Assembly: GCA_034928745.1 (NCBI GenBank)
Contig: JAYFOS010000018.1
Location: forward strand, 2,103 to 66,102
Direction of reading: 5' to 3'
Source of the DNA: Rikenellaceae bacterium
GTDB lineage: Bacteria; Bacteroidota; Bacteroidia; Bacteroidales; UBA932
DNA length: 64,000 nucleotides
Of this stretch, positions 11,942 to 62,507 are shown in pieces (position 1 is the stretch's first letter; each line of letters starts with the position of its first letter). The notes under the pieces are model-generated. The model did no database searches and was not told the origin of the DNA. It saw only the letters and a list, made by a program, of their open reading frames with translations. The position numbers and the translations under genes are program-made.

Positions 11942-13293
11942 AGAGGTTTTTTGTCTTTGTATACGCCGTAATTCTTAGCATCTTCATCAACTTTTATCCT
12001 TGTGCCAGACTGTAGTGGTATTGTTGTTGATTTGGCAGCGGGAATCTCCGGCCAGGCACCTGTTGATATATATGTTAAAGCAGATTGTAACCAATCCTCT
12101 TCCAACCCGAAATCATGATAGAGGTCGTCCGGTCTTTGATGATCAGGAACAAGACCATCTTCATAATCACCCTGTCCTAAACTATTAACACTATAGAACG
12201 CTATCGGAAGGAATACAAAATCAGGGTAAATCTCTTCATCTTCAGGATAGAACCAAACATACATGCCGTTTGGTTTGCCATATGTTGTCCTTCCGATTTG
12301 CAGGACATTCATTAGTGGCCGAAATCCATTGATTATTACTTCACTTGCTGAAGCAGTGCCACCTCCTGTTAAAATTATCAACCTGTCCAGATCCAGTGAG
12401 TTGTTTACTCTACTGACAATAGTCATGGTACTTGTCTGAGAGTCGTATGATGAAAGTTTGTCATTGTGTTTACGACGAGCAACAACCTTACCGTTGGCAC
12501 TAGCCGGGGCAATGTAGTTGGAAAGCAATTGTGTGGCAGCTCCGTCTCCGCCGCCATTGTACCTGAGGTCAAGTATCAGCTCTCTTACGTTTGCAGATTT
12601 GAATACTGCCATAGCTGTCTCAATATCTGAAAGCATGCCTGCCTTAAATGCATAGTAGTTGAAATATGCGACAGGGTAAGGTAATCCGGGGAAATCCGCA
12701 GATGTAATGACCATACTCTTCAGCACAGATCTGGTGCTTACCTCCCTGGCATTTGCCGTGAATGTATATGAGATCCCGTCATATTTTCTGAAAGTAAAAG
12801 AATTTGTACTATTGTTAATCAAGGTGTTGAAGGTCCCGTTGCGTATCAGATCAGCAACAGGAGTCCCGTTCAGATGTGTCAACTCATATCCTCTTTTTAC
12901 CCCTTTTTCTGACATAGGAGAATTATCAAATACGTATCTCACCCTGACACTATAATCGTTGTAATGATCGATAGGCTGGGCATAACTTGCTCCATAAGTA
13001 AGATAAACTCCTGTCTCTGAATCAGTGTACTCCTCGCCTGACATCATCCATGACCATCTGTCTTTTGTTACCAATAAAGTATCAAAGTATTCATAGAGGG
13101 AAGATATTGGATCAGGATCGATATTCACTGGGATTTCTTTATACCAGTAATAAACGTCATTCATAAGAGAGTACAGATAACTTTTTTCAACACTCAACTC
13201 ATCGCGATTCACCTTGTCGCAAGATGTTAATATAAATGGGAAAATGATAAGAATTGCCGAAAAAAGCAGAATTTTCTTTATTAAAGTTGCCAT
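11938..13293 (-). CDS. S41-family peptidase lipoprotein
   Basis: Lipobox ILTSC. LILDLRYNGGGD and GGGTASASEVIING motifs (Ser nucleophile region) are typical of S41 tail-specific-protease-like enzymes. Its stop overlaps the M28 start (ATGA at 11938-11941). Confidence 0.75.
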   Translation of the reverse strand: MATLIKKILLFSAILIIFPFILTSCDKVNRDELSVEKSYLYSLMNDVYYWYKEIPVNIDPDPISSLYEYFDTLLVTKDRWSWMMSGEEYTDSETGVYLTYGASYAQPIDHYNDYSVRVRYVFDNSPMSEKGVKRGYELTHLNGTPVADLIRNGTFNTLINNSTNSFTFRKYDGISYTFTANAREVSTRSVLKSMVITSADFPGLPYPVAYFNYYAFKAGMLSDIETAMAVFKSANVRELILDLRYNGGGDGAATQLLSNYIAPASANGKVVARRKHNDKLSSYDSQTSTMTIVSRVNNSLDLDRLIILTGGGTASASEVIINGFRPLMNVLQIGRTTYGKPNGMYVWFYPEDEEIYPDFVFLPIAFYSVNSLGQGDYEDGLVPDHQRPDDLYHDFGLEEDWLQSALTYISTGAWPEIPAAKSTTIPLQSGTRIKVDEDAKNYGVYKDKKPL

Positions 13294-24434: not shown

Positions 24435-25685
24435 CTATTTTGTATAATAATCAATCATTTTGTTGATAGCTCTCACACATACAGGGCAAAAGCCTTTTGC
24501 CGTGTTTGTTTTCATCCTGCAATCCTCAGCGGGTCTGAAGATTCCCTTAGCCATATATCCGCCTCCTTCATATGTTCCGACTCCATCTTTCCCTACCATA
24601 TCTTTCCATTTGGATCCGAAGTCAACCATTGTGGTCAGATTTGGTTCCCACGGCTCTACCTTTAAATTGTAAAACTCTTCGTAAGCCACTTGAGAAGTAT
24701 AGTATTCGTCTCCAAGACCGGCAAATGAATGACCGAACTCATGAACAAAAACCATCGCTTCAGTGGGGTGATCCGACATACTCAGTCCATAATAGTTGTA
24801 AATACCTCCACCTCCGTATTTATTAGTATTAACTATCACATATATTGCATCAAACGGGGAATTTGAAACAGTAGAGCCTACAAGAGAATATTCAGGTGCG
24901 GTCAGGTAACGGTCTATTTTAAATGTGTAAAAGTTGGAAGCTATTACGGTGTTTTTCCATACACCCTGATGAGGAATGTCAGTTCCACTTTCTTTAGACA
25001 AAGATTTTATTGCCCATATGTTGAAATCATCTTTTCTTGACTTATAGGGCTCAATATTGAACAGGTATTCTGTAAATTTTCCTGCATCTTTTATGAATTT
25101 ATCCATGTCAGCGGCAGTGTATCCCTCAGCAACAAACAGTACATCAACCTTGTTTGAACAATTTCCGTTATTGAGTATGGAGATAACTTCAAAATCATTC
25201 TCTTTCTCGCAGCTTATCGAGAGATCCGTCGGGTCAATCTCAAAATTGGATAATTCTGCAAGTTTCCCGTCAGACTTTCTTCTCTCTGAAAAAACAACCT
25301 TTATTCTCTCTTTTGGCCAAGGTATCCAACATGCTCCTGAAAAGGATTTTGACACGGATTTAGCTTCAGATGTTGTCCTCCACTCCTGGAAAAGGTTGTT
25401 GAACCCATTTGTGTATATAGTTTTGCCATCTTTTGCAACAATCTGAATATTGTATTCCCCATAACAGAAAGGAGATATAAGTTTTGTCCGTGTACCGCTC
25501 CATTCGTTTTCCTTATGCACCCCTTTGAGAAATATCTCTTGTTTTTCCGAGTTCCCTGCAAAAGTGAGATCTATTCTCATTCGTTGTGAGGTAAAATAGT
25601 TATCATAATCGACATTGCCGGATTCCTGAGCGAATGATAGCAAAGAAACCAGTAATAATACTGCTGCCAGTAAATATGTTTTCAT
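24435..25685 (-). CDS. M64-family (IgA-peptidase-like) secreted zinc metallopeptidase
   Basis: Signal peptide and HEFGHSFAGLGDEY, the extended HExxH motif typical of M64. Confidence 0.8.
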   Translation of the reverse strand: MKTYLLAAVLLLVSLLSFAQESGNVDYDNYFTSQRMRIDLTFAGNSEKQEIFLKGVHKENEWSGTRTKLISPFCYGEYNIQIVAKDGKTIYTNGFNNLFQEWRTTSEAKSVSKSFSGACWIPWPKERIKVVFSERRKSDGKLAELSNFEIDPTDLSISCEKENDFEVISILNNGNCSNKVDVLFVAEGYTAADMDKFIKDAGKFTEYLFNIEPYKSRKDDFNIWAIKSLSKESGTDIPHQGVWKNTVIASNFYTFKIDRYLTAPEYSLVGSTVSNSPFDAIYVIVNTNKYGGGGIYNYYGLSMSDHPTEAMVFVHEFGHSFAGLGDEYYTSQVAYEEFYNLKVEPWEPNLTTMVDFGSKWKDMVGKDGVGTYEGGGYMAKGIFRPAEDCRMKTNTAKGFCPVCVRAINKMIDYYTK

Positions 25686-46766: not shown

Positions 46767-48109
46767 TGCTTTCAAAATTTAAAGAGAATCTTGGAACTAC
46801 ACTTGGTAGATGCAAGATACTTGCTGCGGTTAGCGGAGGAGTAGACTCTATGGTCATGGCTTCTCTTCTATACGAATGCTTTAATACTGATTTTGCAATT
46901 GCAACAGTTAATTTCAAGTTGAGAGGTAAGGAGAGTGATGCCGATCATAAGCTTGTATATGACTGGGCTAACAGCAAAGGCATAAAAGTTTTCGGAACAT
47001 CTTTTGATACATCAGACTATGCTGTTTCAAAAGGTATATCTATAGAGATGGCTGCAAGGGAACTGCGTTACGGATGGTTTTACAGGGTTATGGAAGAGGA
47101 GGGCTGTGAGGCACTTGCAATTGCTCATAACTTAAATGATTCTGTTGAAACATTGTTCCTGAATATTCTTAGAGGGACAGGAATCGAGGGACTGGGGGGG
47201 ATAAAAATGAAGACAGGAAGGATAGTAAGGCCTATGTTGTCATTTACAAGAGGGGAAATAATGAATTATGCACAACGGGAGGGAATCCCTTTTAGAGAAG
47301 ACAGTACAAACAGAGAAGATGTCTATGCTCGTAATAGAATAAGAAACAGAGTCTTTCCTGAATTTCAGATGATAAATCCTTCGTTTCTCAGGACAATTGA
47401 ACGTGATATGCTCTATTTCACAGAGGCTTCAGATATCATTAAAAAACAATTGCAACAGGTCAGGTCAGAGATTATAGAGAGGGATAGCTCCAAGGCCACA
47501 TTGAAGATTAGAATTGACAGGCTTCTCTCATTTGAACATTCCAATTACTGGCTATACATGATATTGAGTGATTATGACTTCAATGCTGCACAAGCCAGAC
47601 AGGTCCATGACTCTCTAACTGGTCAATCCGGAAAGGAGTTTCATTCGCGGAATTATATGATTGTTAAGGATAGAGATTATCTGTTGATATATTCAAAGGG
47701 TGAGAGTAATATAGGAGAACTTGGAGAGAGACTAATTGAAAAACCTTCGGGAACTCCCTATTTAATTACAATTCAATCACAGACCATCTCTTTCAGGTTG
47801 TTCAGAAAGGAAAAAGGATTTATGCCTGAACCGTCAAAAGATAAGCTTTATGTTGATACTGAAAAAATTGAATTTCCTTTGACCTGCCGCCTCTGGAGAG
47901 ATGGAGACAGGTTCATCCCTTTAGGAATGAGAGGTTTTAAAAAACTCAGCGACCTCTTTATTGATGAAAAGCTTGACATAAAAAGCAAAGAGCACCGTTT
48001 AGTGCTCTCTGACAATGATAATATTGTTGCAGTACTTGGTCACCGAATTGATGACCGGTATAAAATCACTCCATCAACAAAAGAGATTCTTGAAATAGTC
48101 CTTAGTTAA
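46766..48109 (+). CDS. tilS: tRNA(Ile)-lysidine synthetase
   Basis: PP-loop AAVSGGVDSMV and HNLNDSVETLFLN. 447 aa. Confidence 0.9.
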   Translation: MLSKFKENLGTTLGRCKILAAVSGGVDSMVMASLLYECFNTDFAIATVNFKLRGKESDADHKLVYDWANSKGIKVFGTSFDTSDYAVSKGISIEMAARELRYGWFYRVMEEEGCEALAIAHNLNDSVETLFLNILRGTGIEGLGGIKMKTGRIVRPMLSFTRGEIMNYAQREGIPFREDSTNREDVYARNRIRNRVFPEFQMINPSFLRTIERDMLYFTEASDIIKKQLQQVRSEIIERDSSKATLKIRIDRLLSFEHSNYWLYMILSDYDFNAAQARQVHDSLTGQSGKEFHSRNYMIVKDRDYLLIYSKGESNIGELGERLIEKPSGTPYLITIQSQTISFRLFRKEKGFMPEPSKDKLYVDTEKIEFPLTCRLWRDGDRFIPLGMRGFKKLSDLFIDEKLDIKSKEHRLVLSDNDNIVAVLGHRIDDRYKITPSTKEILEIVLS

Positions 48110-49868
48110 AGTAAATATTGTAGGGTAATCTGGCAAAAGTCCTCACACCCTTCTCTTTCGATAGTTTCATATATGTCCTCTCAAGCGCAGCTGCCGGGTC
48201 TGAAATCACTTTTGCTGCACTTCCGCTGGCTTGCAGTTGCTCCATAATCTTGTCAAATTGAGTCTTCTGTACAGGATATTCAACAACTCTGTAGCTCTCA
48301 AGTGAGCTCATAGCCGCTGCAGACTGAAGGGCTTCATGAATTCCGCCAAGCTCATCAGCCAGTTTTATTCTGATAGCATCATACCCGGACCATATTCTAC
48401 CTTGAGCTATTGAATCTATCTGCCCAACCGAGAGACTCCTGCCTTCTGCCACCAGATTCAGAAATTGGTTGTATATTACCTCTACCTCTTTCTGCATAAA
48501 TGCAATCTCATCGTTGTCCATTGACCTGTATAGGGAGAGAATGTCGCTGTGTTTGTGTGTCTTGACTGTCTCAGGGTTTATAGAGAGGTGTTTCTCTATC
48601 GTTTTCTGGGCATTGAGTGCTAGACTGAAAACTCCAATTGACCCGGTGAGAGTTGTATTGTTGGTAATAATCTTGTCTGCATTTGCGGCAATCCAATAGC
48701 CTCCGGAAGCTGCATAGTCTCCCATGCTTACAACTACCGGCTTTTTCTCCCGGAGGAGTTTTAATTCTCTTTCAATTATGTCGGCACACTGAGCTGAACC
48801 TCCGGGAGAGTTGACCCTGAGAACTACAGCTTTTATAGTACTGTCTTTTCTTATTTTTGAAAGCATTGCAACAAAGTTGTCGGAAGAGATATTATCGTCA
48901 CTTTTACCCATCACAATTTCACCGTTTGCATAAAGGACTGCTATCTTGTTTTTCTCTTTTAGGTTAATTTTTTTGGTGGCTGTTATGTAATCAGCCAATG
49001 TAACAGTTTTCAGATCTTTTTCCTTTTCAACTCCAAAAAGCGACACAAGTGTGTCGGTAAGCTGATCCTTATACATAAGCTCATCAACAAAACCAAGTTC
49101 CTTTACTCTCTGAGAATTAATCATTTCAAGATTGTTGGTTATTTCATTTAACCGCTCTACGGATATGCCTCTTGATTTGGAAATATTTTCAGCCCATGTA
49201 CCCCAAACTGCATCAATGTATGCCTGAAGCTGTTCCCTGTTCTCATCACTCATTTTGTTGCTTATAAACTGTTCTGCAGCAGCTTTAAACTTTCCGTGAC
49301 GTATTAATTGTGCCTGGATTCCCATTTTGTCAAGAAGATCTTTAAAAAACAACGAATTGACGGAAAGTCCGGTAAGTGCAAGTGTGCCGGCAGGATTCAG
49401 AAATATTTTATCAGATACCGTTGCCAGATAATATGCCCCTTGAGAATAATTCTCGGCATAAGAGATAATGGCCTTTCCGCTTTCATGAAATCGGGAAAGA
49501 GCAGCTCTTATCTCTTCAATATGAGAAATTCCGGCATCAATGTCGTTCAGATTCATATAGATGAACTTAATACGCGGATCTGTTGCTGCCGCATCAATTG
49601 CATCAACAACACTGAGAATACCGAGACTTTTTGATGAAAGTTCCAGATTTGTAAGGCTAGCATCAGCAAATGGATCATCTATTGATTGTTCTGTTATACG
49701 ATTAACAAAATTCAGATTTAAAACAGCAGCGGAGGGAACGGTTGGTGTGCTCTTTTCTGCTACTGATGCTATGGAGCTGAATATCCCTATAAGTAGGAAG
49801 ATACCAAGAACCATAGCTATTAAAGAACCGACAAATGTGCCGGCAACAATTTTGAGAAAATTTTTCAT
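48102..49868 (-). CDS. sppA: Signal peptide peptidase SppA, 67K type
   Basis: N-terminal TM followed by two tandem S49 domains. The second carries GDYAASGGYWIA with the Ser nucleophile. Confidence 0.9.
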   Translation of the reverse strand: MKNFLKIVAGTFVGSLIAMVLGIFLLIGIFSSIASVAEKSTPTVPSAAVLNLNFVNRITEQSIDDPFADASLTNLELSSKSLGILSVVDAIDAAATDPRIKFIYMNLNDIDAGISHIEEIRAALSRFHESGKAIISYAENYSQGAYYLATVSDKIFLNPAGTLALTGLSVNSLFFKDLLDKMGIQAQLIRHGKFKAAAEQFISNKMSDENREQLQAYIDAVWGTWAENISKSRGISVERLNEITNNLEMINSQRVKELGFVDELMYKDQLTDTLVSLFGVEKEKDLKTVTLADYITATKKINLKEKNKIAVLYANGEIVMGKSDDNISSDNFVAMLSKIRKDSTIKAVVLRVNSPGGSAQCADIIERELKLLREKKPVVVSMGDYAASGGYWIAANADKIITNNTTLTGSIGVFSLALNAQKTIEKHLSINPETVKTHKHSDILSLYRSMDNDEIAFMQKEVEVIYNQFLNLVAEGRSLSVGQIDSIAQGRIWSGYDAIRIKLADELGGIHEALQSAAAMSSLESYRVVEYPVQKTQFDKIMEQLQASGSAAKVISDPAAALERTYMKLSKEKGVRTFARLPYNIYFN

Positions 49869-49908: not shown

Positions 49909-50586
49909 TTACATCTTTCTTAATCTGTAGCCCACACCCCTGATATTCTCTATATTGACAGGTGTCGAAGCTAGCTTTTTCCTGAGATGAGAGGCAAGGG
50001 CCTCAAGAGATTTTTTAGTGTCAATATCTTTATCTTCCCATATAGCGATAACAAGATCGGAGACTTTACAAATCTGATTAAAGTTGTTGCACAAAATCTG
50101 CAGCAACCTGTTTTCATAAAATGAGAGGATTGTAGCTTCGCCATCTTGCATCATCAGACACCTCTCCTCAGGGGAGTAATTTATATTTCCAAGAGTGAAT
50201 ATATCATTGTTTTTGCTTGATATCTGCATGCACTTCTGTACTCTTATCAATAACTCTCTTAATCCAAAAGGTTTTTTTAGATAATCACTGCAGCCAATTT
50301 CAAAGCCATTGGCAACGCTACTGTCATCGCTTATTGAGGTGATAAATATTATAGGGATATTCTTGTCTACGGCTCTTATAAGCCGGGCAACCTCAAATCC
50401 GTCGATTTCAGGCATATTTACATCAAAAAGGCAGAGGTCCGGGTGGAATTGATTGTATTGTTCCAACGCAGAACGACCGTCACTTACAAATGAGAGTTCA
50501 TAACCGCTCATTTTAAGAAACTCGCACATGGCATAGCCAAAGTTCAATTCATCATCGGCTAGAAGTATCCTCTTTCCCATGCTCAC
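49909..50586 (-). CDS. OmpR/PhoB-family response regulator (receiver + winged-helix)
   Basis: Receiver motifs ILLADDE and LCLFDVNMPEIDG (phospho-Asp), KPF. C-terminal winged helix ending RGVGYRL. Confidence 0.85.
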   Translation of the reverse strand: MSMGKRILLADDELNFGYAMCEFLKMSGYELSFVSDGRSALEQYNQFHPDLCLFDVNMPEIDGFEVARLIRAVDKNIPIIFITSISDDSSVANGFEIGCSDYLKKPFGLRELLIRVQKCMQISSKNNDIFTLGNINYSPEERCLMMQDGEATILSFYENRLLQILCNNFNQICKVSDLVIAIWEDKDIDTKKSLEALASHLRKKLASTPVNIENIRGVGYRLRKM

Positions 50587-51922
50587 AATTTATTGATAAA
50601 GTAAAAGTGCTTCCTTTCCCCACTTCGCTGACAAGTGTGATCTTACCTTTATGGGCCTTGACCACCCACATCACATAATTAAGGCCCAATCCGAACCCTT
50701 TGCCTTTCTGTGCATGCTCTTTCTTGCTTCCTCTGTAGAATTTCTCGAACACTTTGGCTTGTTCCTCTTTAGGAATCCCAATGCCGTTGTCTTCTACAGA
50801 TATATAAAAGTATTTGCCCTCTTTGCGGGTAGAAACATTAATCTTGACTGAGTCATCCGAGTACTTTATCGCATTATCTATCAGATTACCTATCGCATTT
50901 GAAATATGTAGCTCATCTCCGAATATTTCCTCTCCTCCTTCAGGTATCTGTGTTGTAATTACTATACTCTTTTTAGGATCTACATTGTGCCTGGCTATAT
51001 GCGGATCTATAGCCTCATGTATATTGAATACTTTTTTCTTTAACGGTGCTTGTCTCTTTTCAAATTTATTAATATCAAGTATATTCTCTATAAGACCATT
51101 AAGAAAATACAACTGCTCTTTTGACTTTCCGAGAAAGTAAGGGGCAGTTTTACTGTCAGCCATCTCTGCAACTTCAAGGTTTGTAATGGAAGATTGTAAT
51201 GGCGATCTGAGCTCATGTGTCAGGAAGTGGGTGATATTCTCTTTCACTTTGGCAAGTGATACTTGCTTGTACAACATGCGTGTCTGAAGCACTATACTTA
51301 CCATAATAAATATAGTCAATACAAGTGACGAGAGCAGCATTATCAGCAGATCTCCCTTGAATACAGAAGTAGGGTAATCTATATGTGCCAGAATTATTAG
51401 ATCTTTTGAAGTAGTAAGTGGTAATTCTATATCGAAACCGGATGTAATGAAAAATGAAGATCCTTTGGATTTGTATTCACAGGTATATATTGCTTTAGAA
51501 TCAGAGTATTTAAGTATATAATTTGTAATGCTTCCATCACTAATCATTTTTTTTGAGAATAGCGCAGATAAGCTATCAATGTTTAGAGGTAGAGTGTTTT
51601 TGTATGCGTCTTGTAATGCTTCTTCAATGGAAACCTTTGTAAATTGTTTGCCACCCTTAAGATCAATATCTTGTATTGCCTCTTCTTGGTTTTGTATGTC
51701 TGAAGGTATATTATTAGATATAACTACAGAAAAACCATCGCTTTTACTGATTTTTTTTAACCTAGAGTTAAGTTCCTTGTTGACAGCCTCCTTAAGTATA
51801 GACTCAGTCTGGTTGCGATAGTCATCCTTCTCACTGTCAATGAGTCTGTATAGCCAGACTCCCTGGATTCCAAGAAGGAAAAAGATTGCAATAATCGATA
51901 TGGAGAGTGCCTTGTTCAGCAT
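50552..51922 (-). CDS. Sensor histidine kinase with a roughly 170-aa extracytoplasmic domain
   Basis: TM1 (ISIIAIFFLLGIQGVWLY), a periplasmic segment and TM2 (LLIMLLSSLVLTIFIMVSIVL). H-box FLTHELRSPL, N-box NLIDNAIKYS, G-boxes DNGIGI and GFGLGL. Confidence 0.85.
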   Translation of the reverse strand: MLNKALSISIIAIFFLLGIQGVWLYRLIDSEKDDYRNQTESILKEAVNKELNSRLKKISKSDGFSVVISNNIPSDIQNQEEAIQDIDLKGGKQFTKVSIEEALQDAYKNTLPLNIDSLSALFSKKMISDGSITNYILKYSDSKAIYTCEYKSKGSSFFITSGFDIELPLTTSKDLIILAHIDYPTSVFKGDLLIMLLSSLVLTIFIMVSIVLQTRMLYKQVSLAKVKENITHFLTHELRSPLQSSITNLEVAEMADSKTAPYFLGKSKEQLYFLNGLIENILDINKFEKRQAPLKKKVFNIHEAIDPHIARHNVDPKKSIVITTQIPEGGEEIFGDELHISNAIGNLIDNAIKYSDDSVKINVSTRKEGKYFYISVEDNGIGIPKEEQAKVFEKFYRGSKKEHAQKGKGFGLGLNYVMWVVKAHKGKITLVSEVGKGSTFTLSINCEHGKEDTSSR

Positions 51923-51953
51923 TTTTCAGCAAATTATCAGTAATTGGTCAGCG
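51915..51953. promoter_or_regulatory. Four helically phased TCAG-core direct repeats (candidate response-regulator operator)
   Basis: TTCAGCA (51915), TTCAGCA (51925), ATCAGTA (51936) and GTCAGCG (51947). TCAG cores start at 51916, 51926, 51937 and 51948, giving spacings of 10, 11 and 11 bp. They lie in the divergent region between the kinase and the peptide ORF, and the first copy overlaps the kinase start codon. Confidence 0.3.
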
Positions 51954-51962
51954 TTCTGTATG

Positions 51963-51970
51963 CAAATGTA
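51963..51970 (-). promoter_or_regulatory. Candidate -7 promoter box (TACATTTG on the minus strand) for the kinase/regulator operon
   Basis: The reverse complement of CAAATGTA is an exact TAnnTTTG, 41 nt upstream of the kinase ATG. The phased repeats sit between this box and the ATG. Confidence 0.3.
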
Positions 51971-52025
51971 ACAATTATTCTTAATTTATTTGTACAACAA
52001 AAAACAAATAAAATACATCAAAGCC

Positions 52026-52154
52026 ATGAGAACAAATTTTGAAAAACTGAATGAACAAGAGATGATTAATGTAGTAGGTGGTGACAAAATTTTAAGATAT
52101 ACAGACGAAGAAGGTAACGTATACTACATAATTATTCGTGACGGAAGACCGTAA
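52026..52154 (+). CDS. Double-glycine-leader precursor peptide (42 aa): MRTNFEKLNEQEMINVVGG / DKILRYTDEEGNVYYIIIRDGRP
   Basis: Below the size cut-off of the ORF track; translated by hand (ATG 52026, TAA 52152-52154). The leader has F-15, L-12, E-8, M-7, V-4, G-2 and G-1, matching the LSxxELxxIxGG-type consensus cleaved by C39 peptidase domains. Co-oriented 95 nt upstream of a C39-ABC exporter. Confidence 0.7.
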   Translation: MRTNFEKLNEQEMINVVGGDKILRYTDEEGNVYYIIIRDGRP

Positions 52155-52199
52155 TTGATTTAAGTCTTTTATCTGAAGTTTGCCCCATTTTGATGACAA

Positions 52200-52218
52200 T
52201 TTGCTGATTTTCAGCAAA
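52200..52218 (+). other. AT-rich hairpin between the precursor ORF and the exporter gene
   Basis: TTTGCTGA (52200-52207) pairs with TCAGCAAA (52211-52218), an 8-bp perfect stem with a 3-nt loop. No downstream T-run, so it is not a canonical intrinsic terminator. Confidence 0.25.
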
Positions 52219-52249
52219 CAAGGATTCCTTTGATTGCTAAATTTAAATA

Positions 52250-54448
52250 ATGTACAGGAGACCATTCAGACATTTCCATCAACTGGACTCCATGGATTGT
52301 GGCCCCACATGCCTGAGAATGGTTGCCATGCATTATGGACACCATTATACTTTAGAGACACTGAGGGAAAAGTGTGAATTTTCCCGGGAGGGTGTCAATC
52401 TGTTCGGTATTGCAAAAGCCGCAGAGAGTTTAGGGTTCAGATCTACAGGAGCAAGACTCTCTTTCGAAGAGTTGTGCAAAGCTCCTTTTCCTTTAATAGT
52501 GCATTGGAATCAACGCCATTTTGTGGTTTTGTACGGAATCAAGGGAAAAGGCAAAAACTTAAAAATGCTTATTGCAGATCCGGCCACATCACTTGTCGAA
52601 CTTAGTGAGTCTGATTTTAAAAAATCGTGGTACAGTACTGTAAAAGACGGAGTCGGATTGGGTATAGCACTTATTCTGGAACCTACACCTAAGTTCTACC
52701 AAGAGGAGGGAGAATCTGTAAACAGACGAGGTTTCAAATTTCTCGGAACATATCTAAAACCATATAAGAAATTTATAACGCAGCTGATCATCGGGCTCTT
52801 TATCGGAAGCCTGTTGCAGCTCATTTTGCCTTTCCTTACCCAGAGTATAGTAGATATAGGTATAGGCACACAGGATATAGGCTTTATCTGGCTTGTACTG
52901 ATAGCCCAACTTATGCTGGCCATAAGTATGGCTTCAGTGGAGTTTATCAGGGGTTGGATATTGTTGCATATGGGAACCAGAATAAATATTTCGCTTATAT
53001 CAGATTTCCTCACTAAACTGATGAAGCTTCCCATTGGCTTTTTTGACACAAGAATGACTGGCGACCTCCTCCAGAGGATTGATGATCATAAAAGAATACA
53101 GAATTTTCTGACGGGATCCTCACTTAATGTTCTATTCTCACTTTTCAATATTGTAATTTTCGGTGCGGTATTATTATACTATAATCCCATTATTTTTCTG
53201 ATCTTTATTCTCTCTTCCGTTGCATATATCTTGTGGGTGTTAGTTTTTATGAAGAGAAGAAGAGAGCTGGATAACAAAGCTTTTACACAAAATGCTGCGA
53301 ATCAAAATTCTGTAATACAGCTCATTACTGGGATGCAGGAGATTAAGCTTAACAGTTGTGAGCGGCAAAAAAGATGGGAGTGGGAGAGAATTCAGGCACG
53401 TCTATACAGGCTTAACATAAAAGGATTGGCCCTCGGGCAATATCAAGAGGCAGGAGCCACACTGATCAATCAATTAAAAAATATTTTGATTACTGTATTT
53501 GCTGCAAGTTCGGTACTTAATGGAGAACTAACTCTCGGTATGATGCTCTCTGTACAGTTTATCAACGGGCAACTGAACGCTCCGCTCATGCAGGTTATAT
53601 CATTTCTGAAGGCATCACAGGACGCAAAGATATCCCTGGAGAGATTGGCAGAGATACATGACAAGGGAGATGAGGAAAAAGATTCTGACAACCTTATTAC
53701 GAAAATTGCAAAGGGAAAGGCTATCATAATAGAGAACCTCTCTTTCAAATATGAAGGTGCAGGGTCTCCGATGGTTTTAAAGAATATAAATCTCTCTATT
53801 CCAAAAGGTAAGGTTACTGCAATAGTTGGTACGAGTGGTAGTGGCAAGACTACTCTGGTTAAACTTCTGTTGGGATTTTATACTCCGCAGGAGGGTAGTA
53901 TAAAGTATGGAGAAAACAATCTGTTTTCGCTCAGTATGGAACGCTGGAGAGAAAAGTGTGGTGTTGTGATGCAAGACGGATTTCTCTTTTCTGATACAAT
54001 AGCCGGTAATATAGCGCCTGGAGTTGAGTCAATTGATGTCAAAAAACTAGAAAAAGCTGTTGAGGTTGCTAATATAAGAGATTTTGTAGAGAGTCTGCCT
54101 CTATCTTACAATACAAAAATTGGGCAGGAGGGACATGGACTGAGCCAGGGGCAAAAACAGCGTCTGCTGATTGCACGTGCAGTATACAAAGATCCGGAAC
54201 TAATATTGTTTGATGAAGCAACAAACTCGCTCGATGCAAATAATGAGATGCAGATTATGAGTAATCTGGATGGATTTTTTGTGGGCAAGACAGTTCTTGT
54301 AGTGGCACACAGGCTTAGTACGGTTAGGAATGCCGATAATATTGTCGTTTTAGACAAAGGTGTGATAACCGAATCGGGAACACACAGTGAGCTCATTGAG
54401 AAAAAGGGAGCTTACTGGCAACTTGTAAAGAATCAATTATATGTCTAA
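52250..54448 (+). CDS. Peptidase-containing ABC transporter (PCAT): C39 cysteine peptidase + 6-TM + ATPase
   Basis: N-terminal HQLDSMDCGPTCL (Gln11, Cys17), HFVVLYG (His90) and IADP (Asp110) form an intact C39 catalytic set. TMD follows. Walker A GTSGSGKTT, signature LSQGQKQR, Walker B LILFDEAT. Confidence 0.92.
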   Translation: MYRRPFRHFHQLDSMDCGPTCLRMVAMHYGHHYTLETLREKCEFSREGVNLFGIAKAAESLGFRSTGARLSFEELCKAPFPLIVHWNQRHFVVLYGIKGKGKNLKMLIADPATSLVELSESDFKKSWYSTVKDGVGLGIALILEPTPKFYQEEGESVNRRGFKFLGTYLKPYKKFITQLIIGLFIGSLLQLILPFLTQSIVDIGIGTQDIGFIWLVLIAQLMLAISMASVEFIRGWILLHMGTRINISLISDFLTKLMKLPIGFFDTRMTGDLLQRIDDHKRIQNFLTGSSLNVLFSLFNIVIFGAVLLYYNPIIFLIFILSSVAYILWVLVFMKRRRELDNKAFTQNAANQNSVIQLITGMQEIKLNSCERQKRWEWERIQARLYRLNIKGLALGQYQEAGATLINQLKNILITVFAASSVLNGELTLGMMLSVQFINGQLNAPLMQVISFLKASQDAKISLERLAEIHDKGDEEKDSDNLITKIAKGKAIIIENLSFKYEGAGSPMVLKNINLSIPKGKVTAIVGTSGSGKTTLVKLLLGFYTPQEGSIKYGENNLFSLSMERWREKCGVVMQDGFLFSDTIAGNIAPGVESIDVKKLEKAVEVANIRDFVESLPLSYNTKIGQEGHGLSQGQKQRLLIARAVYKDPELILFDEATNSLDANNEMQIMSNLDGFFVGKTVLVVAHRLSTVRNADNIVVLDKGVITESGTHSELIEKKGAYWQLVKNQLYV

Positions 54449-56140: not shown

Positions 56141-56584
56141 ATGAAAAGAGTGCTACAGCCATTTCTAACTATTGTTCTCCTTATATTTTATATAATGGCT
56201 AGCTTTGGTATTGGTGTCCATGAGTGCTCTGCAAGTGGTACTGTAAATGTGCGGATATTTGCATCCTCAAAGAGTTGTGATTCCATTCATTCAATCTGCT
56301 GCTGCAAGCATCATCATCACGATGGTTTACCCAAACATCAGCACCACTCTTCCAAATGTTGCCATACAACAATTCATCAACTGACAAATGATTACGATAT
56401 TTCTCAGTTAAATTTCAAGTTTTCACAAATTCCGATCTTCAATCTTATTCCGGAATTCATTTCTTCATTTTCTAACGACTTATCATCGGATGAGTTACTT
56501 ATAGCTTTTTACAACGGCTATACTCCTCCGCCCCTTATTAAGGAGACTGATCCATGTTCATACCACTCTCAGTGGAGATTGTAG
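56141..56584 (+). CDS. Membrane-anchored His/Cys-rich protein (resembles the HYC_CC_PP family as I recall it)
   Basis: N-terminal anchor ending GVHEC, then CCCKHHHHDGLPKHQHHSSKCCH and a later YTPPPL, giving H-x-C, CC and PP motifs in that order. Confidence 0.6.
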   Translation: MKRVLQPFLTIVLLIFYIMASFGIGVHECSASGTVNVRIFASSKSCDSIHSICCCKHHHHDGLPKHQHHSSKCCHTTIHQLTNDYDISQLNFKFSQIPIFNLIPEFISSFSNDLSSDELLIAFYNGYTPPPLIKETDPCSYHSQWRL

Positions 56585-56629
56585 AGAATCTATCTTTTTC
56601 GGATAGAAACTTTTTACAATTTAAAGAAC

Positions 56630-58825
56630 ATGAAAAAAATAATTTTATCAGTAATATTACTATATATTACCACATTCTCCTTTGCACAGACAATTAATGG
56701 CATTGTAAAGGTACAACGCATTAGCGGAGATGTGGAACCACTTCCTTATGCCTCGGTATATTGGCTTGAAGGAAAACTCTCATTGGAATCAGATGAAGAG
56801 GGAAAATTTACAATTAAAAACAATAATTCTCAGAAAGTATCCCTGATAGCGACATATATCGGATATTCTAAGGATACGGTAGTTCTTGCCCCAGGGGAGG
56901 AGAAAGCGGAATTTCTTCTAAAAGAGGGGAATAATCTAAATGAAGTCAGAGTTGTCGGAAGACAGGAAGGCAATTACATATCTAAAATGACACCAGTAAA
57001 GACAGAGGTAATCTCAGCAGCCGGATTGTGCAAGATGGCTTGTTGTAACCTGGCAGAGAGTTTTGAAAACTCGGCAAGCGTGACTGTCGGTTATTCAGAT
57101 GCTATAACTGGTGCCAGACAGATCAAATTACTAGGATTGTCCGGACAATACACCCAGATGCTTGATGAGAACCGACCGGTAATGAGAGGTATCGCTGCTC
57201 CCTTCGGTCTCTCTTATATTCCGGGTCAATGGCTTGAGAGCATACAGATAGCAAAAGGGCCATCCTCTGTTGTTAATGGTATCGAGGCGATTACCGGGCA
57301 GATAAATATGGAGCACAGGAAGCCGACAGCGGAACAGCCATTGTTCATTAATCTTTTCCTCAGTGACCAGCTTAAGGCAGAAGCCAATGTTGCCTCATCA
57401 CTACAACTGAATCAAAAGTGGAGTACTGTCATACTGGGACATGTCTCTAAAGATTTTATGAATCATGATGGTAACAATGACGGATTTAAGGACGATCCGT
57501 TGACAACACAGTTCAACTTGTCCAATCGCTGGCTTTATGCTCCGTCAAATGGTATTCAGCTTAGATTTGGATTTAAGGCTATGAGTGATGAAAGGATTGC
57601 CGGCATGAATGATTTCAAGGAGGATTCAGAGGTGACTAACACCCTCTGGGGATCAAAAATAAATAATAAAGGTCTGAACGGCTATGTAAAGCTTGGAATT
57701 CCGCTTAATGAGAACAACTCAAAGAATGTGGCCGGTGTCGTAGATTATTCTATGTATGAAATGAACTCATTCTTTGGACAAAAAAGTTATGATGCAACTC
57801 AGAATTCGGTTTTTGTCAACCTGATGCTTCAGAATCAGATAAATGACAAACACAAGTATATACTGGGTCTCAGCGGGCAATACGATAATTTTGACGAATT
57901 CCTTAACAGTGCCTCAATAGGAAGAGTTGAACAATCTGCCGGAGCGTATGGAGAGTATACCTACACAAATGGGGATAAGATTACTTTCGTTACCGGCCTC
58001 AGGCTAGATAATAACAATATCCACGGATGGCTGTTTGCTCCAAGAGTAAATGTAAAGTATGCATTTACTGAGAAGCTTATCCTGAGGGCATCCGGTGGCA
58101 GAGGGTTCAGATCTCCAAATCAGGTTGCCGATAATCTGGGTATTTTGTCAACAGGCAGACGTATCCAACTGGAGGCAAATCCGGATATGGAGGATGCCTG
58201 GACTTATGGGATGAACCTTACCGGTTATATGCCTTTTGGCTTTGATAAAAATGCAACTCTCAGCTTTGAGTACTTCCGGACAGATTTTCAACATCAACTA
58301 ATCGTTGACCAAGAGAGAGATCTTTCGACCATATGGTTATATAATCTTTCAGGACGTTCATATACAAATACATATCAGGCCGACTTCTCTTTTCAGCCGA
58401 TAGAACGCTTTACCGTCTTGCTGACATACAGACTTACTGACGCAAAGGTGACTCTTGAGGGTCAAGGGCTCGTGGAAAGGCCTCTTATGAGTAAGTATAA
58501 GGGAGTGCTTAATTTGCAATATGCAACAAGAATGAACAAATGGACATTCGATTTTACTGCACAGCTCAATGGTCCGGCAAGGTTGCCGAATTTCATGACT
58601 GAGGAGTACTCTCCTGTCTATCCTGTACTGTTTGCCCAAGTAACAAAGAGGTTCAAGAGTCTTGAAGTCTATGTCGGAGGAGAGAATCTGACCAACTATA
58701 GACAGAAAAATCCAATTCTGAATGCTGATCAGCCGTTCAGTGAAGGATTCAACACGACTGTAATATGGGGCCCGCTCATGGGAGTCCGCTTTTATGCAGG
58801 TCTTCGTTTTACTCTTTGGAAATAA
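56630..58825 (+). CDS. TonB-dependent receptor with an N-terminal CarboxypepD_reg-like domain
   Basis: Signal peptide, INGIVKV...EGKFTI carboxypeptidase-regulatory-like fold, plug (NLAESFENSASVTV, IQIAKGPSSVVNG) and a 22-strand-sized barrel ending RFTLWK. Confidence 0.9.
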   Translation: MKKIILSVILLYITTFSFAQTINGIVKVQRISGDVEPLPYASVYWLEGKLSLESDEEGKFTIKNNNSQKVSLIATYIGYSKDTVVLAPGEEKAEFLLKEGNNLNEVRVVGRQEGNYISKMTPVKTEVISAAGLCKMACCNLAESFENSASVTVGYSDAITGARQIKLLGLSGQYTQMLDENRPVMRGIAAPFGLSYIPGQWLESIQIAKGPSSVVNGIEAITGQINMEHRKPTAEQPLFINLFLSDQLKAEANVASSLQLNQKWSTVILGHVSKDFMNHDGNNDGFKDDPLTTQFNLSNRWLYAPSNGIQLRFGFKAMSDERIAGMNDFKEDSEVTNTLWGSKINNKGLNGYVKLGIPLNENNSKNVAGVVDYSMYEMNSFFGQKSYDATQNSVFVNLMLQNQINDKHKYILGLSGQYDNFDEFLNSASIGRVEQSAGAYGEYTYTNGDKITFVTGLRLDNNNIHGWLFAPRVNVKYAFTEKLILRASGGRGFRSPNQVADNLGILSTGRRIQLEANPDMEDAWTYGMNLTGYMPFGFDKNATLSFEYFRTDFQHQLIVDQERDLSTIWLYNLSGRSYTNTYQADFSFQPIERFTVLLTYRLTDAKVTLEGQGLVERPLMSKYKGVLNLQYATRMNKWTFDFTAQLNGPARLPNFMTEEYSPVYPVLFAQVTKRFKSLEVYVGGENLTNYRQKNPILNADQPFSEGFNTTVIWGPLMGVRFYAGLRFTLWK

Positions 58826-58870
58826 TTAATCCTATTCTAAACTTTTTACTAATTTTACAAACAATAAATC

Positions 58871-59188
58871 ATGAAAAATATTATTAAATCAATCTCGCTT
58901 TTACTAGTAGCATCAATCTTTATCTTTGCGAACACAGCAAACGCGCAGGGCAAAAAGAGCAACAAGGATGTTGAAATAACATTCTCTGTTGATATAGACT
59001 GTCCTTCTTGCAAGAAAAAACTTGAGGACAAGCTGCCATTTGAGGCAGGTGTGAAGGATATGAAAATTAATCTTGAAGAGCGCACAATCTGGATGAAGTA
59101 TGATCCAAGCAAGACAGATAAGGTGAAACTTGCAAAAGCTATAGAGAAACTCGGTTATTCTGCCAAAGAGATCGAGGTTAAAAAATAA
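58871..59188 (+). CDS. Secreted heavy-metal-associated (HMA) domain protein
   Basis: Signal peptide (FANTANAQG), a ferredoxin-like fold length of about 75 aa and a CxxC metal motif DCPSCKKK at the canonical loop-1 position. Confidence 0.8.
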   Translation: MKNIIKSISLLLVASIFIFANTANAQGKKSNKDVEITFSVDIDCPSCKKKLEDKLPFEAGVKDMKINLEERTIWMKYDPSKTDKVKLAKAIEKLGYSAKEIEVKK

Positions 59189-60008: not shown

Positions 60009-62507
60009 ATGAAAAAAGTATTATTAACCTCTTTCCTATTATTTTTATCTTTTCTGGCTGTTGATTGCAATGCTCAGTCATGGATAAGGATCAATCAAGC
60101 CGGATATCTGCCTCAGGATATCAAGGTCGCTGTATTTATGTCGCTTGATAGTCTGACGTCTGACCAATTTGAAGTAGTTGATGCCTTGTCACTTAAATCT
60201 GTATTCAAAGGTAACGGTAGAAAGGTTAACGCTAAGGTGTGGGGAATGAAAAATGCTTACAGGATGGATTTTTCATCAATACAATCCAGCGGAGGATATT
60301 ATATCACTTCAAATGGTGTTAAATCACCTGTTTTCAGAATCTCTCCGGATTCATATAACGGACTTTCGGATCTGTTGTTGGTCTATATGAGGCAGCAAAG
60401 ATGTTATGATAATCCGTATACAGGTGAAATTTGCCATGCTGACGACGGTTATATAGTCAATCATCCGACAAGAAACGGTGAGAAGATAGATGTACGCGGC
60501 GGTTGGCATGATGCCACTGATTACCTGCAATATCAGACAACTTCAGGCACGGCTCTCTATCATATGATGTTTGCTTGGCAGCAGCAGAAAGACAAATCGG
60601 TATTTAAGGATTTTTTTGATGCAAGGGGTAGAAAAGGCTCTAATGGAATTCCTGATATCTTGGATGAAATCAGATGGGGAATGGACTGGATGCTCAGGAT
60701 GAATCCTGAGGATAAAGTTATGTTCAACCAGATTGCTGATGATAGGGATCATGCCGGTTTCAGACTCCCTCAAAATGATAAAGTTGATTACGGCTGGGGG
60801 CCGGGTAAGGGACGGCCTGTCTATTTTGTAACAGGAGAACCTACTGGCCTGAAGAAATGGGTGAACCGCACAACCGGGGTTTCGTCTGTTGCAGGAAAAT
60901 TTGCCTCTTGCTTTGCACTGGGCGCTGAAATCTTTAAAGAATCAGATCCGCAATATTCCGGAAAGCTGATGGAAAAGGCAAAGCAAGCATACGCCTTTGC
61001 CGAGGAGAAGCCTGGTAATACTCAGACAGCGTGCGTTGTTTCTCCGTATTTTTATGAGGAGGATACTTATGTAGATGATATAGAGCTTGCAGCTGCCACT
61101 TTTTACAATTTAAGCAATGAAGCTGAATGGGGTGAAAAGGCTGATTACTGGGGTGAACTGGAGCCGGTAACACCTTGGATGGAACTTGGAAGAGGGAGAC
61201 ACTACCAATTTTATCCTTTTATAAATCTGGGTCATTACTACCTTGCTCAATCATCTGACCAGAAGGTTCGAGATAAATATATTGCATATATGAAAGCGGG
61301 TCTTGAAAGCCTGAAAAACAGAGCTACAGATGATCCTTTCATTTATGGCGTGCCATTCCTCTGGTGTTCAAACAATCTGGTTTCTGCAGCCATAACGCAG
61401 GCACATCTCTACAGGAAAGTGACAAACGATAGTACATATCTTGAAATGGAGATGGCATTGAGAGACTGGTTATTCGGTTGCAATCCATGGGGAACCTCCA
61501 TGATCGTTGGTTATCCCGAAGGTGGGGATTATCCTGATTCGCCTCACTCTTCATATACGCAGGTGAATGGAGATCTTACAATAGGCGGATTGGTGGATGG
61601 ACCAATATATTATGACCTGTTTCACGAGAGGGCAGGAGGGGCACTCAGAAAAGCGGACAGCTATGCGCTTTTCAACAATGGAAAGGCTGTTTACCACGAT
61701 GATATAGGGGATTATTCCTCAAATGAGCCGACAATGGATGGTACTGCCGGCCTTACTTATTATTTCTCTGCTATGGAGTCAGAGGGAAAAGATTATGAAC
61801 GGCTGAGAGAGAAAGCTGCAAATGCTGAAAAAGACACATACGGGGCAATAGTGAGGATAAATCCGGACAAGAAAACAATTTATCTGGTATTTTCTGCTGA
61901 CTCGATGTTCCAGGGAGGAGAGACTATTCTCAAAACACTTGATGCCAACAAAATTAAGGGGTCTTTCTTTTTTACAGGCAACTTCCTGAGGTTGGATAGT
62001 ATGAAGGGTATTATCTCGAAAATCGTGAAGAGAGGTCATTTTGTGGGGGGGCACTCTGACGGACATCTGCTTTACGCAGAATGGGGAGCTAAGCGTCAGA
62101 CACTTGTGTCCCCTGACAGTCTTACAGCAGATCTTCGACGAAACTATCAGGAGTTGTCAAAATTCGGAATCAAGCCATCCGATGCATTGTGGTATCTTCC
62201 TCCATACGAGCATTATAATATGGAATCTGTAGAAGTTGTATCAAGGGCAGGACTAAGGACTATTAACTATACCCCCGGGACTGCTACTCCTGCAGATTAT
62301 ACTACACCGGACATGAAAAGCTATAAAAGTAGCAAGGAGCTAATTGATAAACTTTTTACCTTTGAAAAGGAGAAAGGACTGAACGGGGCAATCATCCTGA
62401 TTCATCCCGGTGTCCAAGAATCCAGGAGTGACAAGCTTTATGATCAATTGGGCGTAATTATAAAGAGGCTTAAGAAGCTGGGTTATACATTTGAGAGACT
62501 TAAATAA
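60009..62507 (+). CDS. Fusion protein: Ig-like N-domain + GH9 glycoside hydrolase + C-terminal CE4-type polysaccharide deacetylase
   Basis: WIRINQAGYLP (CelD_N-like start), GGWHDATDY (variant of the GH9 GGWYDAGD motif, both Asp retained), SNEPTMDGTAG (GH9 acid Glu region). After about residue 620: LVFSAD...GHSDGHL (HSxxH) and ILIHPG, typical of NodB/CE4-like deacetylases. Confidence 0.75.
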   Translation: MKKVLLTSFLLFLSFLAVDCNAQSWIRINQAGYLPQDIKVAVFMSLDSLTSDQFEVVDALSLKSVFKGNGRKVNAKVWGMKNAYRMDFSSIQSSGGYYITSNGVKSPVFRISPDSYNGLSDLLLVYMRQQRCYDNPYTGEICHADDGYIVNHPTRNGEKIDVRGGWHDATDYLQYQTTSGTALYHMMFAWQQQKDKSVFKDFFDARGRKGSNGIPDILDEIRWGMDWMLRMNPEDKVMFNQIADDRDHAGFRLPQNDKVDYGWGPGKGRPVYFVTGEPTGLKKWVNRTTGVSSVAGKFASCFALGAEIFKESDPQYSGKLMEKAKQAYAFAEEKPGNTQTACVVSPYFYEEDTYVDDIELAAATFYNLSNEAEWGEKADYWGELEPVTPWMELGRGRHYQFYPFINLGHYYLAQSSDQKVRDKYIAYMKAGLESLKNRATDDPFIYGVPFLWCSNNLVSAAITQAHLYRKVTNDSTYLEMEMALRDWLFGCNPWGTSMIVGYPEGGDYPDSPHSSYTQVNGDLTIGGLVDGPIYYDLFHERAGGALRKADSYALFNNGKAVYHDDIGDYSSNEPTMDGTAGLTYYFSAMESEGKDYERLREKAANAEKDTYGAIVRINPDKKTIYLVFSADSMFQGGETILKTLDANKIKGSFFFTGNFLRLDSMKGIISKIVKRGHFVGGHSDGHLLYAEWGAKRQTLVSPDSLTADLRRNYQELSKFGIKPSDALWYLPPYEHYNMESVEVVSRAGLRTINYTPGTATPADYTTPDMKSYKSSKELIDKLFTFEKEKGLNGAIILIHPGVQESRSDKLYDQLGVIIKRLKKLGYTFERLK

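Follow-up and report, generated by a model that had tools for sequence, protein, structure and literature searches.

A double-glycine leader peptide of uncultured Bacteroidales and its proposed pairing with a hypervariable histidine kinase encoded next to it

Peptide pheromones that carry a double-glycine (GG) leader and work with a dedicated peptidase-containing ATP-binding cassette transporter (PCAT) and a cognate two-component system belong to the textbook biology of Gram-positive bacteria. Here we describe a locus with similar components in a stretch of 64,000 nucleotides from Rikenellaceae bacterium (GenBank assembly GCA_034928745.1, contig JAYFOS010000018.1, positions 2,103 to 66,102; this whole stretch is the window, and its first letter is position 1), where an open reading frame (ORF) of 42 codons, at 52026-52154 of the forward strand, precedes a PCAT gene. 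The locus shares with the Firmicutes systems ComC/ComAB/ComDE, BlpC/BlpAB/BlpRH and PlnA/PlnBCD a short unmodified GG-leader peptide, a dedicated PCAT and adjacent genes for a histidine kinase (HK) and for a response regulator (RR), as well as direct repeats in the target promoter and a joint diversification of peptide and sensor alleles, which recombination exchanges. It differs from them in several respects: the host is a diderm member of the Bacteroidales; the kinase is a HisKA protein with two transmembrane (TM) helices and a periplasmic sensor, whereas theirs are multi-TM kinases of the HPK10 class; the regulator is OmpR-type instead of LytTR; the exporter adds a membrane fusion protein (MFP) and, in some loci, an outer membrane efflux protein (OEP), and the operon continues into genes for a TonB-dependent receptor and an HMA-domain protein; finally, the peptide is predicted to form a beta-hairpin and theirs an amphipathic helix. 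Since the two-TM HisKA kinase and the Trans_reg_C regulator fall outside the HPK10 and LytTR classes that mark ComCDE-type systems, we regard the locus as an analogue of the ComCDE/BlpCRH type and not as a member by descent. The reading that we favour, with a probability of roughly 0.55, is that the small unmodified secreted peptide is the cognate signal of the divergently encoded HK, so that both would form a pheromone/receptor pair with pherotype-like alleles. What carries this reading is that, in wild uncultured Bacteroidales, allelic replacement is concentrated jointly in the core of the peptide and in the sensor of the kinase.

Other described systems resemble the locus in part. Class II microcins such as MccV (CvaC), exported by CvaAB-TolC, share a Gram-negative host, a GG leader, export by a PCAT with an MFP and a TolC-type protein, and the lack of modification (PMC12219008, PMC10233263). 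However, they typically have 60-90 residues, an adjacent immunity gene and a location on plasmids or islands, whereas here a 23-residue anionic hairpin, which is not known to be antibacterial, is encoded at a locus of the core chromosome to which a two-component system is linked. A protein of 121 residues with three TM helices and without a family match, which could be immunity-like, is encoded after the MFP and hence not next to the peptide gene. The bacteroidetocins share the phylum, a short GG leader (15-16 residues in theirs, 19 here), a PCAT gene alongside and a multi-TM protein as accessory, but they are cationic peptides (+2 to +6) of 42 residues with four Cys and a thiol oxidoreductase, and their four-gene region holds neither an HlyD-type MFP nor a two-component system (PMC6671954). 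The present core has 23 residues, a net charge of -1 and no Cys, and no oxidoreductase was found between 49.9 and 59.2 kb, which sets it apart from the bacteroidetocins by description. RaxX of Xanthomonas, with its RaxB-RaxA-RaxC exporter, is a GG-leader peptide of a Gram-negative bacterium that leaves through a PCAT, an MFP and an outer-membrane factor and acts as a signal and not as a toxin; it has to be sulfated on tyrosine by RaxST and imitates a plant hormone, whereas no sulfotransferase is present here and the likely receiver is the producer's own kinase. The leader also resembles that of the radical-SAM (rSAM)-modified GG peptides of Bacteroidota (TIGR04149; 13.8 bits for a cut-off of 25, hence below threshold); their core is unrelated, and no rSAM enzyme or other maturase is encoded at this locus. 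Full-text searches of the Bacteroidota literature returned no paper that describes this peptide family or signalling by peptide pheromones in the phylum, and the nearest text found was a speculative remark on rSAM clusters for ribosomally synthesized and post-translationally modified peptides in Bacteroidales.

The ORF of 42 codons is a genuine gene that encodes a small peptide and has been conserved. An earlier reading of this DNA, made from the letters without database searches (the sequence-only reading), had translated it as MRTNFEKLNEQEMINVVGG followed by DKILRYTDEEGNVYYIIIRDGRP, and re-translation gave exactly the same product. The leader residues it listed counting back from Gly19 (V at -4, M at -7, E at -8, L at -12 and F at -15) were all right on direct reading, as was its description of the core as Cys-free and 23 residues long, with five acidic (D20, D27, E28, E29 and D39) and four basic residues (K21, R24, R38 and R41). 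It had also called the ORF unannotated, and here it was mistaken: the identical 42-residue protein is public as MEA5006579.1 and MPM85619.1 under the name 'hypothetical protein' and is present in UniRef, gene callers had already predicted the ORF on contigs of the same species, and homologues are named 'bacteriocin' in the NCBI and JGI annotation. With the TIGR01847 model (bacteriocin_sig) the leader reaches 15.7 bits, a value equal to the curated cut-off, and its residues at -4, -7, -8, -12 and -15 agree with the consensus of such leaders. A strict leader pattern within a small ORF occurs only once in the 64 kb, in this ORF, and in 0 of 150 simulated sequences of the same length; a looser pattern was found on average 0.55 times per simulated sequence, and because it is not rare by chance the leader by itself is moderate evidence only. 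It is the conservation across loci that settles the reality of the ORF. The sequence-only reading had proposed a search for similar ORFs upstream of related PCAT genes together with a test for selection, and these revealed that start codon, frame and stop codon are all retained in 30 of 30 non-redundant loci, under purifying selection. Pooled over all locus pairs, the ratio of nonsynonymous to synonymous differences per site (pN/pS) was 0.13 in the leader and 0.34 in the core, in which synonymous sites are saturated (pS = 0.76); the lower synonymous divergence of the leader codons (pS 0.50) suggests that the nucleotide sequence itself is under an additional constraint close to the beginning of the mRNA.

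Homologues of the peptide were recovered in several ways. A word-indexed search returned nine, with 70-93% identity; a scan of one genome per GTDB species gave 28 loci with the peptide, all of them from uncultured Bacteroidales (labelled Rikenellaceae, Muribaculaceae or Bacteroidetes metagenome-assembled genomes, MAGs) together with Bacteroidales bacterium CF, whose genome is complete, and a scan of metagenomes added 14 further loci. Each of 53 loci holds exactly one GG-leader ORF. The window itself is ordinary core chromosome, with genes for IF-2, NusA, adenylosuccinate lyase, ProRS and TilS, and the locus appears to be vertically inherited across a family-level clade, as a single copy in a housekeeping region of the chromosome. 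The core follows the scaffold x-[VIL]-[LIVA]-[RKQ]-x-[TIV]-D-x-x-G-N-V-x-Y-I-[IVL]-I-x-[DE], with D27, G30, N31, V32, Y34, I35 and I37 conserved, position 25 (Y, I or V) diagnostic of the peptide class, and variable, frequently acidic tails; the peptide of the window ends in RDGRP. Mature peptides of the family have 23-31 residues and are anionic, with net charges of -1 to about -6 as counted from the sequences. A profile search of 1.84 billion representative proteins gave about nine genuine relatives; the remaining matches were 'VTDxxGN' hairpins repeated in large repeat proteins, a resemblance of motif that supports the hairpin and was discarded as homology. One entry of 104 residues (P0017) retains the leader plus the initial half of the core (…DKILQITDGDGNV) followed by unrelated sequence, and is probably a frameshifted or chimeric contig.

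The claim that the core would read as a single beta-hairpin is borne out by an AlphaFold2 model built on a 10-sequence alignment, in which two predicted strands (residues 21-26 and 32-37) are joined by the D-x-x-G-N turn, with a predicted local distance difference test (pLDDT) of 83-89 in the core. The core matches no Pfam or NCBIfam family, in agreement with the novelty it had been credited with, and neither database reveals a modification enzyme at the locus. The PCAT gene begins 95 nt downstream of the peptide stop (52155-52249 separate them, with the ATG at 52250), and alignment with the solved peptidase domains of ComA and PCAT1 shows that the C39 catalytic site is intact, with Gln11, Cys17, His90 and Asp110 kept. 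Both halves of the initial proposal, a GG-leader precursor and a catalytically intact PCAT beside it, have thus survived testing, and the PCAT would be expected to cleave after Gly19 and to export the 23-residue peptide. The features of the locus are listed in Table 1.

Table 1. Features of the peptide locus in window coordinates
Feature	Coordinates	Strand	Basis	Remarks
OmpR-type response regulator (Response_reg + Trans_reg_C)	49909..50586	-	Pfam	
Histidine kinase (HisKA + HATPase_c), two TM helices around a periplasmic domain of ~170 residues	50552..51922	-	Pfam, sequence, AlphaFold2 secondary structure	
Periplasmic sensor of the kinase, residues 26-195	51338..51847	-	nucleotide identity, dN and dS	hypervariable island
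Three direct repeats of 11-nt period, TCAGCAAATTA TCAGTAATTGG TCAGCGTTCTG	51926..51958	+		3 nt from the kinase start codon; candidate regulator site
A/T-rich block ending in TTTATTTGTA	51960..51995	+		near-invariant in 30 loci; putative promoter
Double-glycine leader, 19 residues, MRTNFEKLNEQEMINVVGG	52026..52082	+		near-invariant across the family
Mature core DKILRYTDEEGNVYYIIIRDGRP, 23 residues, plus stop codon	52083..52154	+	AlphaFold2	predicted beta-hairpin
Inverted repeat/hairpin TTTGCTGA-ttt-TCAGCAAA	52200..52218	+		between peptide and PCAT genes, conserved
PCAT, C39 peptidase + ABC exporter, 732 residues	52250..54448	+	Pfam, NCBIfam	
HlyD-type membrane fusion protein, 437 residues	54441..55754	+	Pfam HlyD_3, TIGR01843	start overlaps the PCAT stop
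121-residue protein, three predicted TM helices	55751..56116	+	sequence	4-nt overlap with the MFP stop (translational coupling)
Cys/His-rich membrane-anchored protein (HYC_CC_PP / DUF8199)	56141..56584	+	NF047658, 23 bits	below the cut-off of 28
TonB-dependent receptor	56630..58825	+	Pfam Plug, TonB_dep_Rec_b-barrel, CarbopepD_reg_2	
Secreted HMA-domain protein	58871..59188	+	Pfam HMA, sequence	intact CPSC metal-binding motif

The two-component system, which was absent from the sequence-only reading together with the promoter repeats and the downstream TonB and HMA genes, is divergent from the peptide, PCAT and MFP genes in 28 of the 28 species-level genome loci and also in the metagenome loci. 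The RR gene adjoins the HK gene in every locus whose contig extends far enough, and the pair remains attached where the upstream S49/TilS flank gives way to other genes. The sensor domain of this kinase is exceptionally variable: among close relatives the HK catalytic domain, the RR, the PCAT and the TonB receptor are 92-100% identical, whereas identity is 53-94% for the HK periplasmic domain and 63-100% for the peptide core, and the RR is 99% identical among close relatives that have differing sensors and peptides. When the window locus (hereafter WIN; other loci are given by number) is compared with L011 and L013, nucleotide identity is 55-63% over 51326-51726 and 80-95% elsewhere. Nonsynonymous divergence (dN) in the sensor is 0.10-0.42, versus 0.00-0.07 in the catalytic domain and the PCAT, and in several pairs synonymous divergence (dS) is raised as well, by a factor of two to four, which suggests that the alleles are imported or old and not the result of recent mutation. 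The AlphaFold2 model of the sensor has a mean pLDDT of 70.8 and consists of a long helix, a disordered segment (63-97) and a four-stranded sheet; a Foldseek comparison of this model with the PDB gave nothing meaningful (best E = 0.008, with a TM-score of about 0.22, to ribosomal proteins), and a search for distant sensor relatives gave nine matches only, all within the same clade.

Four pairs of near-clonal contigs were compared as natural experiments, and they revealed that the sensor and the peptide core are replaced together. WIN and L056, the latter from an independent sequencing run, differ over 13.8 kb by six scattered single-nucleotide polymorphisms (SNPs) outside the replaced block, and by 190 mismatches in the sensor (51365-51800). 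Their peptide ORFs differ by nine mismatches, all located at 52082-52134, which result in the changes L23I, Y25I, E28D and I37V and leave the leader protein unchanged, while the 281 nt that separate the sensor patch from the core contain two mismatches. Both swapped patches are nearest to the L011 type and the stretch between them is of the window type; the TonB receptor of this pair differs by one SNP, and hence does not co-vary with the peptide type. In the second pair, L013 (Bacteroidales bacterium CF) and L068, the HK catalytic region and the PCAT are 99.1% and 99.4% identical, respectively, and a single tract of about 940 nt, from residue ~200 of the HK to just past the peptide stop, falls to 64% identity in the sensor and 68% in the core; L068 has the exact peptide of the window and a window-type sensor on a CF-type background. 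The same pattern of joint replacement, with lower divergence, was found between L011 and L063. In a different species group, L050 and L051 differ from L052 by 76-91 mismatches in the sensor, nine in the core and one in the intergenic region plus leader, on a background of 13-17 mismatches in the 2.6 kb upstream and four in the 1.5 kb downstream.

The same correspondence is seen when all 27 loci of the window's species group are considered, where three super-types of sensor match three classes of peptide in 27 of 27 cases with no exception; some of these loci are the same contig fetched twice, so that the independent observations are fewer than 27. Super-type A, which is 52-60% identical to B and C, occurs with the class Y25-EEGN (DKILRYTDEEGN...) in nine loci on two genomic backgrounds; super-type B with the class I25 (D[KQ]I[LI]RITD[DE][ED]GN...) in 15 loci on at least four backgrounds; and super-type C with the class V25-SDGS (D[QK]VIRVTDSDGS...) in three loci. 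Mature peptides representing the three types are DKILRYTDEEGNVYYIIIRDGRP for A, DKIIRITDDEGNVYYIIVRDGRP for B and DQVIRVTDSDGSVYYIIIRDGRKN for C. The alleles recur on 11-25 independent contigs from NCBI, JGI, ENA and Logan assemblies, and since these are the product of different assemblers a single chimeric assembly is an unlikely source of the pattern.

From these results the following mechanism can be proposed. The C39 domain of the adjacent PCAT would recognise the 19-residue leader and cut after Gly19, and the PCAT, the MFP and an outer-membrane factor, encoded within the cluster in some relatives and presumably elsewhere in the genome of the window, would export the 23-residue beta-hairpin. 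The peptide would then reach the periplasmic domain of the HK either directly or by re-entry, for which the TonB-dependent receptor would be the obvious candidate; this domain would sense the peptide in an allele-specific manner and the kinase would phosphorylate the OmpR-type regulator. Acting at the triple repeats, the regulator would activate the operon of peptide, exporter and TonB receptor, thereby creating positive feedback, and strains would carry differing but matched alleles of peptide and sensor, as in pherotypes. Pheromones of the GG type are small and unmodified, while microcins have 60-90 residues; the size of 23-31 residues and the absence of modification are therefore a better fit to the former. 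The guess hedged in the sequence-only reading, a signalling peptide or a new kind of exported effector, is the one that the HK/RR pair and the joint replacement of sensor and core favour.

Several observations weigh against this proposal. The peptide and the sensor are encoded about 300 nt apart, so that their joint transfer is in part a matter of physical linkage, and two separate swapped patches were seen only in the pair of WIN and L056. The two are not strictly coupled: between L050 and L051 only the sensor differs and the peptide is the same, L017 and L051 show four conservative differences in the core with sensors that are 95% identical, and one peptide is common to sensors of 86-92% identity. 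Most of the evidence comes from metagenome contigs, in which strain-level chimeras are possible. A partial Mantel test of core against HK-sensor distances, controlling for the PCAT, gave r = 0.22 (p = 0.003), and was set aside as uninformative because control proteins, including a probably unrelated 269-residue protein encoded downstream, correlated equally or better (r = 0.24-0.56). The kinase and regulator, as mentioned above, are not of the classes present in known GG-pheromone systems; the TonB receptor is only a candidate route for the return of a 2.7-kDa peptide across the outer membrane; and the presence of the Cys/His-rich, TonB and HMA genes in the same operon goes beyond what signalling alone explains.

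The alternative that deserves most attention is that the product is a bacteriocin, similar to microcins or bacteroidetocins, that kills relatives, the 121-residue protein being its immunity protein or an aid to secretion and the two-component system responding to another cue. It has the better prior, given that most of the characterised substrates known for PCATs of Gram-negative bacteria are toxic, namely the class II microcins (PMC12219008) and the bacteroidetocins (PMC6671954), and it agrees with the GG leader accompanied by a PCAT and an HlyD-type MFP, with the small membrane protein translationally coupled downstream, and with the label 'bacteriocin' that the NCBI and JGI pipelines assign to homologues; moreover, bacteroidetocins target BamA (PMC8546649), and proteins of the outer membrane could be attacked by a hydrophobic beta-hairpin that adds itself as a strand. 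Nevertheless, we consider it unlikely, given that a single copy in a housekeeping region with apparently vertical inheritance over a family-level clade, a core under purifying selection with conservative changes, and anionic mature peptides of only 23-31 residues, without Cys or a thiol oxidoreductase in contrast to bacteroidetocins (PMC6671954), are not what would be expected of such a toxin; the 121-residue protein is encoded away from the peptide gene and is not a hot spot of divergence, and the replacement of the HK sensor along with the peptide is not predicted at all. A dual role as pheromone and toxin, like that of plantaricin A or nisin, would be a sub-case that overlaps with the pheromone reading.

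A connection with metals appears to us decidedly improbable as the primary function, although it is suggested by the neighbourhood: the peptide would be an accessory of the downstream metal module, outside the cell or in the periplasm, perhaps as a ligand or carrier that the receptor imports, and the HK would sense its loaded or unloaded state or the metal itself. In all loci the peptide and exporter genes form one tight co-oriented string with those for HYC_CC_PP, the TonB receptor and the HMA protein, the latter retains its CPSC motif, and many members of the peptide family have acidic C-terminal tails. However, Cys, His and Met are all missing from the core, acidic tails are not a constant of the family, as the end of the window peptide illustrates, and the HK periplasmic domain is likewise poor in His, Cys and Met; the TonB receptor, the HMA protein and the Cys/His-rich protein are unchanged when the peptide type changes, and in L017-type loci an OEP gene stands between the 121-residue and HYC_CC_PP genes as a module boundary. 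The lack of Cys, His and Met in the core and the variability of the acidic tails also led us to discard a metallophore as the principal reading. That the ORF is open by chance, or is a relic without function upstream of the PCAT gene, could be proposed on account of its shortness, a leader score that sits at the threshold and the frequency of loose leader patterns, but the retention of frame, start and stop in about 30 species, while synonymous sites are saturated, effectively refutes it; the scarcity of the strict pattern in simulations, the confident hairpin model and the recurrence of the alleles on independent contigs point in the same direction.

If the pheromone/receptor reading is true, a diderm phylum that is dominant in guts and anaerobic digesters has peptide signalling with strain-specific 'dialects', and a 2.7-kDa peptide must cross the outer membrane both ways, for which the TonB-dependent receptor offers a testable route of import. 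The natural allele swaps would be ready-made sets of cognate and non-cognate peptide and sensor, and it would follow that pipelines which assign the label 'bacteriocin' from nothing but the leader can conceal signalling systems. A bolder version, which we put forward tentatively and hold rather doubtful, is that this would be the first peptide-pheromone circuit of Bacteroidota, with true pherotypes, re-import through the TonB receptor and a metal module under the control of cell density and kin type: the PCAT, the MFP and a TolC-type protein would secrete the unmodified hairpin, the TonB receptor would return it, and the hypervariable HK domain would read it in an allele-specific manner. The complete genome of Bacteroidales bacterium CF (CP006772.1) was reportedly assembled from a laboratory enrichment culture, and such a culture makes direct tests feasible.

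The region between the HK and peptide genes, of about 100 nt, contains conserved elements that could mediate this regulation. The triple-repeat pattern is unique in the window, where 0.01 occurrences are expected by chance, and is kept as T[C/G]AGCA units in 30 of 30 aligned loci, TGAGCA replacing TCAGCA in some clades. Regulators of the OmpR/PhoB family typically bind sites with an 11-nt period, and the repeats are a candidate binding site for the OmpR-type regulator. The A/T-rich block that follows is a putative promoter, its end being one mismatch away from the -7 element of Bacteroidota, TAnnTTTG. A scan for sigma-70 promoters and terminators was uninformative for Bacteroidota, and a search of 51700-52400 against Rfam gave no match.

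Another conserved element is the inverted repeat found between the peptide and PCAT genes, which shares the TCAGCA half-site with the upstream repeats. In the 8-pair stem drawn by hand, 80% of the cells are paired, versus 21-50% with a slid partner, and two-sided changes occur in four of the eight pairs, which is modest support; the RNAalifold consensus of this element is weak, with three pairs and -0.99 kcal/mol. These results give moderate backing to an RNA hairpin, whose role might be that of an attenuator or of an operator. The C to G change is present in both the hairpin and the upstream repeats in four loci (L029, L031, L035 and L037), and in the upstream repeats alone in three others. 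A second palindrome, ACATAA-TTTTT-ATTATGT, is found just before the PCAT gene in many clades other than that of the window.

The gene order shared by the loci consists of the RR and HK genes on the opposite strand, the intergenic region, and then the peptide, PCAT, HlyD-type MFP, 121-residue protein, Cys/His-rich protein, TonB-dependent receptor and HMA protein. The PCAT has the domains Peptidase_C39 (113.9 bits with Pfam), ABC_membrane and ABC_tran. Public gene calls (L056-L086) mostly place its start at Met15 (52292; 718 residues), and other clades probably initiate it at TTG or GTG. The start at 52250, which gives 732 residues, is more plausible because initiation at Met15 would cost the C39 oxyanion hole its conserved Gln11. 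The clades of L017 and L026 have, in place of the MFP, a protein of 185-212 residues without a Pfam match (L017:10406-12891, L026:10304-10942); in the clade of L017, L019 and L022 the MFP position is occupied by a protein of 185 residues, and an OEP/TolC-like gene (PF02321) is located between the 121-residue and Cys/His-rich genes. This OEP gene speaks in favour of secretion through the outer membrane, and its position indicates where one module ends.

The 121-residue protein has no family match in Pfam or NCBIfam; homologues follow the MFP in 17 of 30 loci (tblastn, coverage of at least 70%), and motifs such as YSKFYDEK are common to this protein and its L017 and L026 counterparts. Judging from its sequence and position, it could be either an accessory of the exporter or an immunity-like protein. 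The Cys/His-rich protein carries the motifs CCCKHHHH and CCH, and its L008 homologue has PF26622 on record; full-text searches for HYC_CC_PP or DUF8199 found no literature on them. A TonB-dependent receptor gene is present downstream in every locus, and may be the route of peptide re-entry or a part of a metal-uptake module. Taken together, the three genes at 56141-59188 (HYC_CC_PP, TonB receptor and HMA) look like a metal-handling module. The 269-residue protein encoded further downstream was considered as a part of the system and rejected, given that elsewhere, as in Salegentibacter and a Prevotellaceae MAG among others, its homologues occur by themselves with unrelated genes around them; for this reason it and the GH9 gene that comes after it are probably neighbours only. 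The GH9 gene (60009-62507), which starts 5 nt past that of the 269-residue protein and trails the cluster in many loci, encodes an 832-residue fusion of CelD_N, GH9 and polysaccharide deacetylase. On the other side of the locus, an S49 SppA-like peptidase gene (48102-49868) adjoins the RR gene, and genes for peptidases of secreted type are located further upstream in the window, belonging to the families M28 (10370-11941), S41 (11938-13293), M49 (15733-17769) and M64 (24435-25685).

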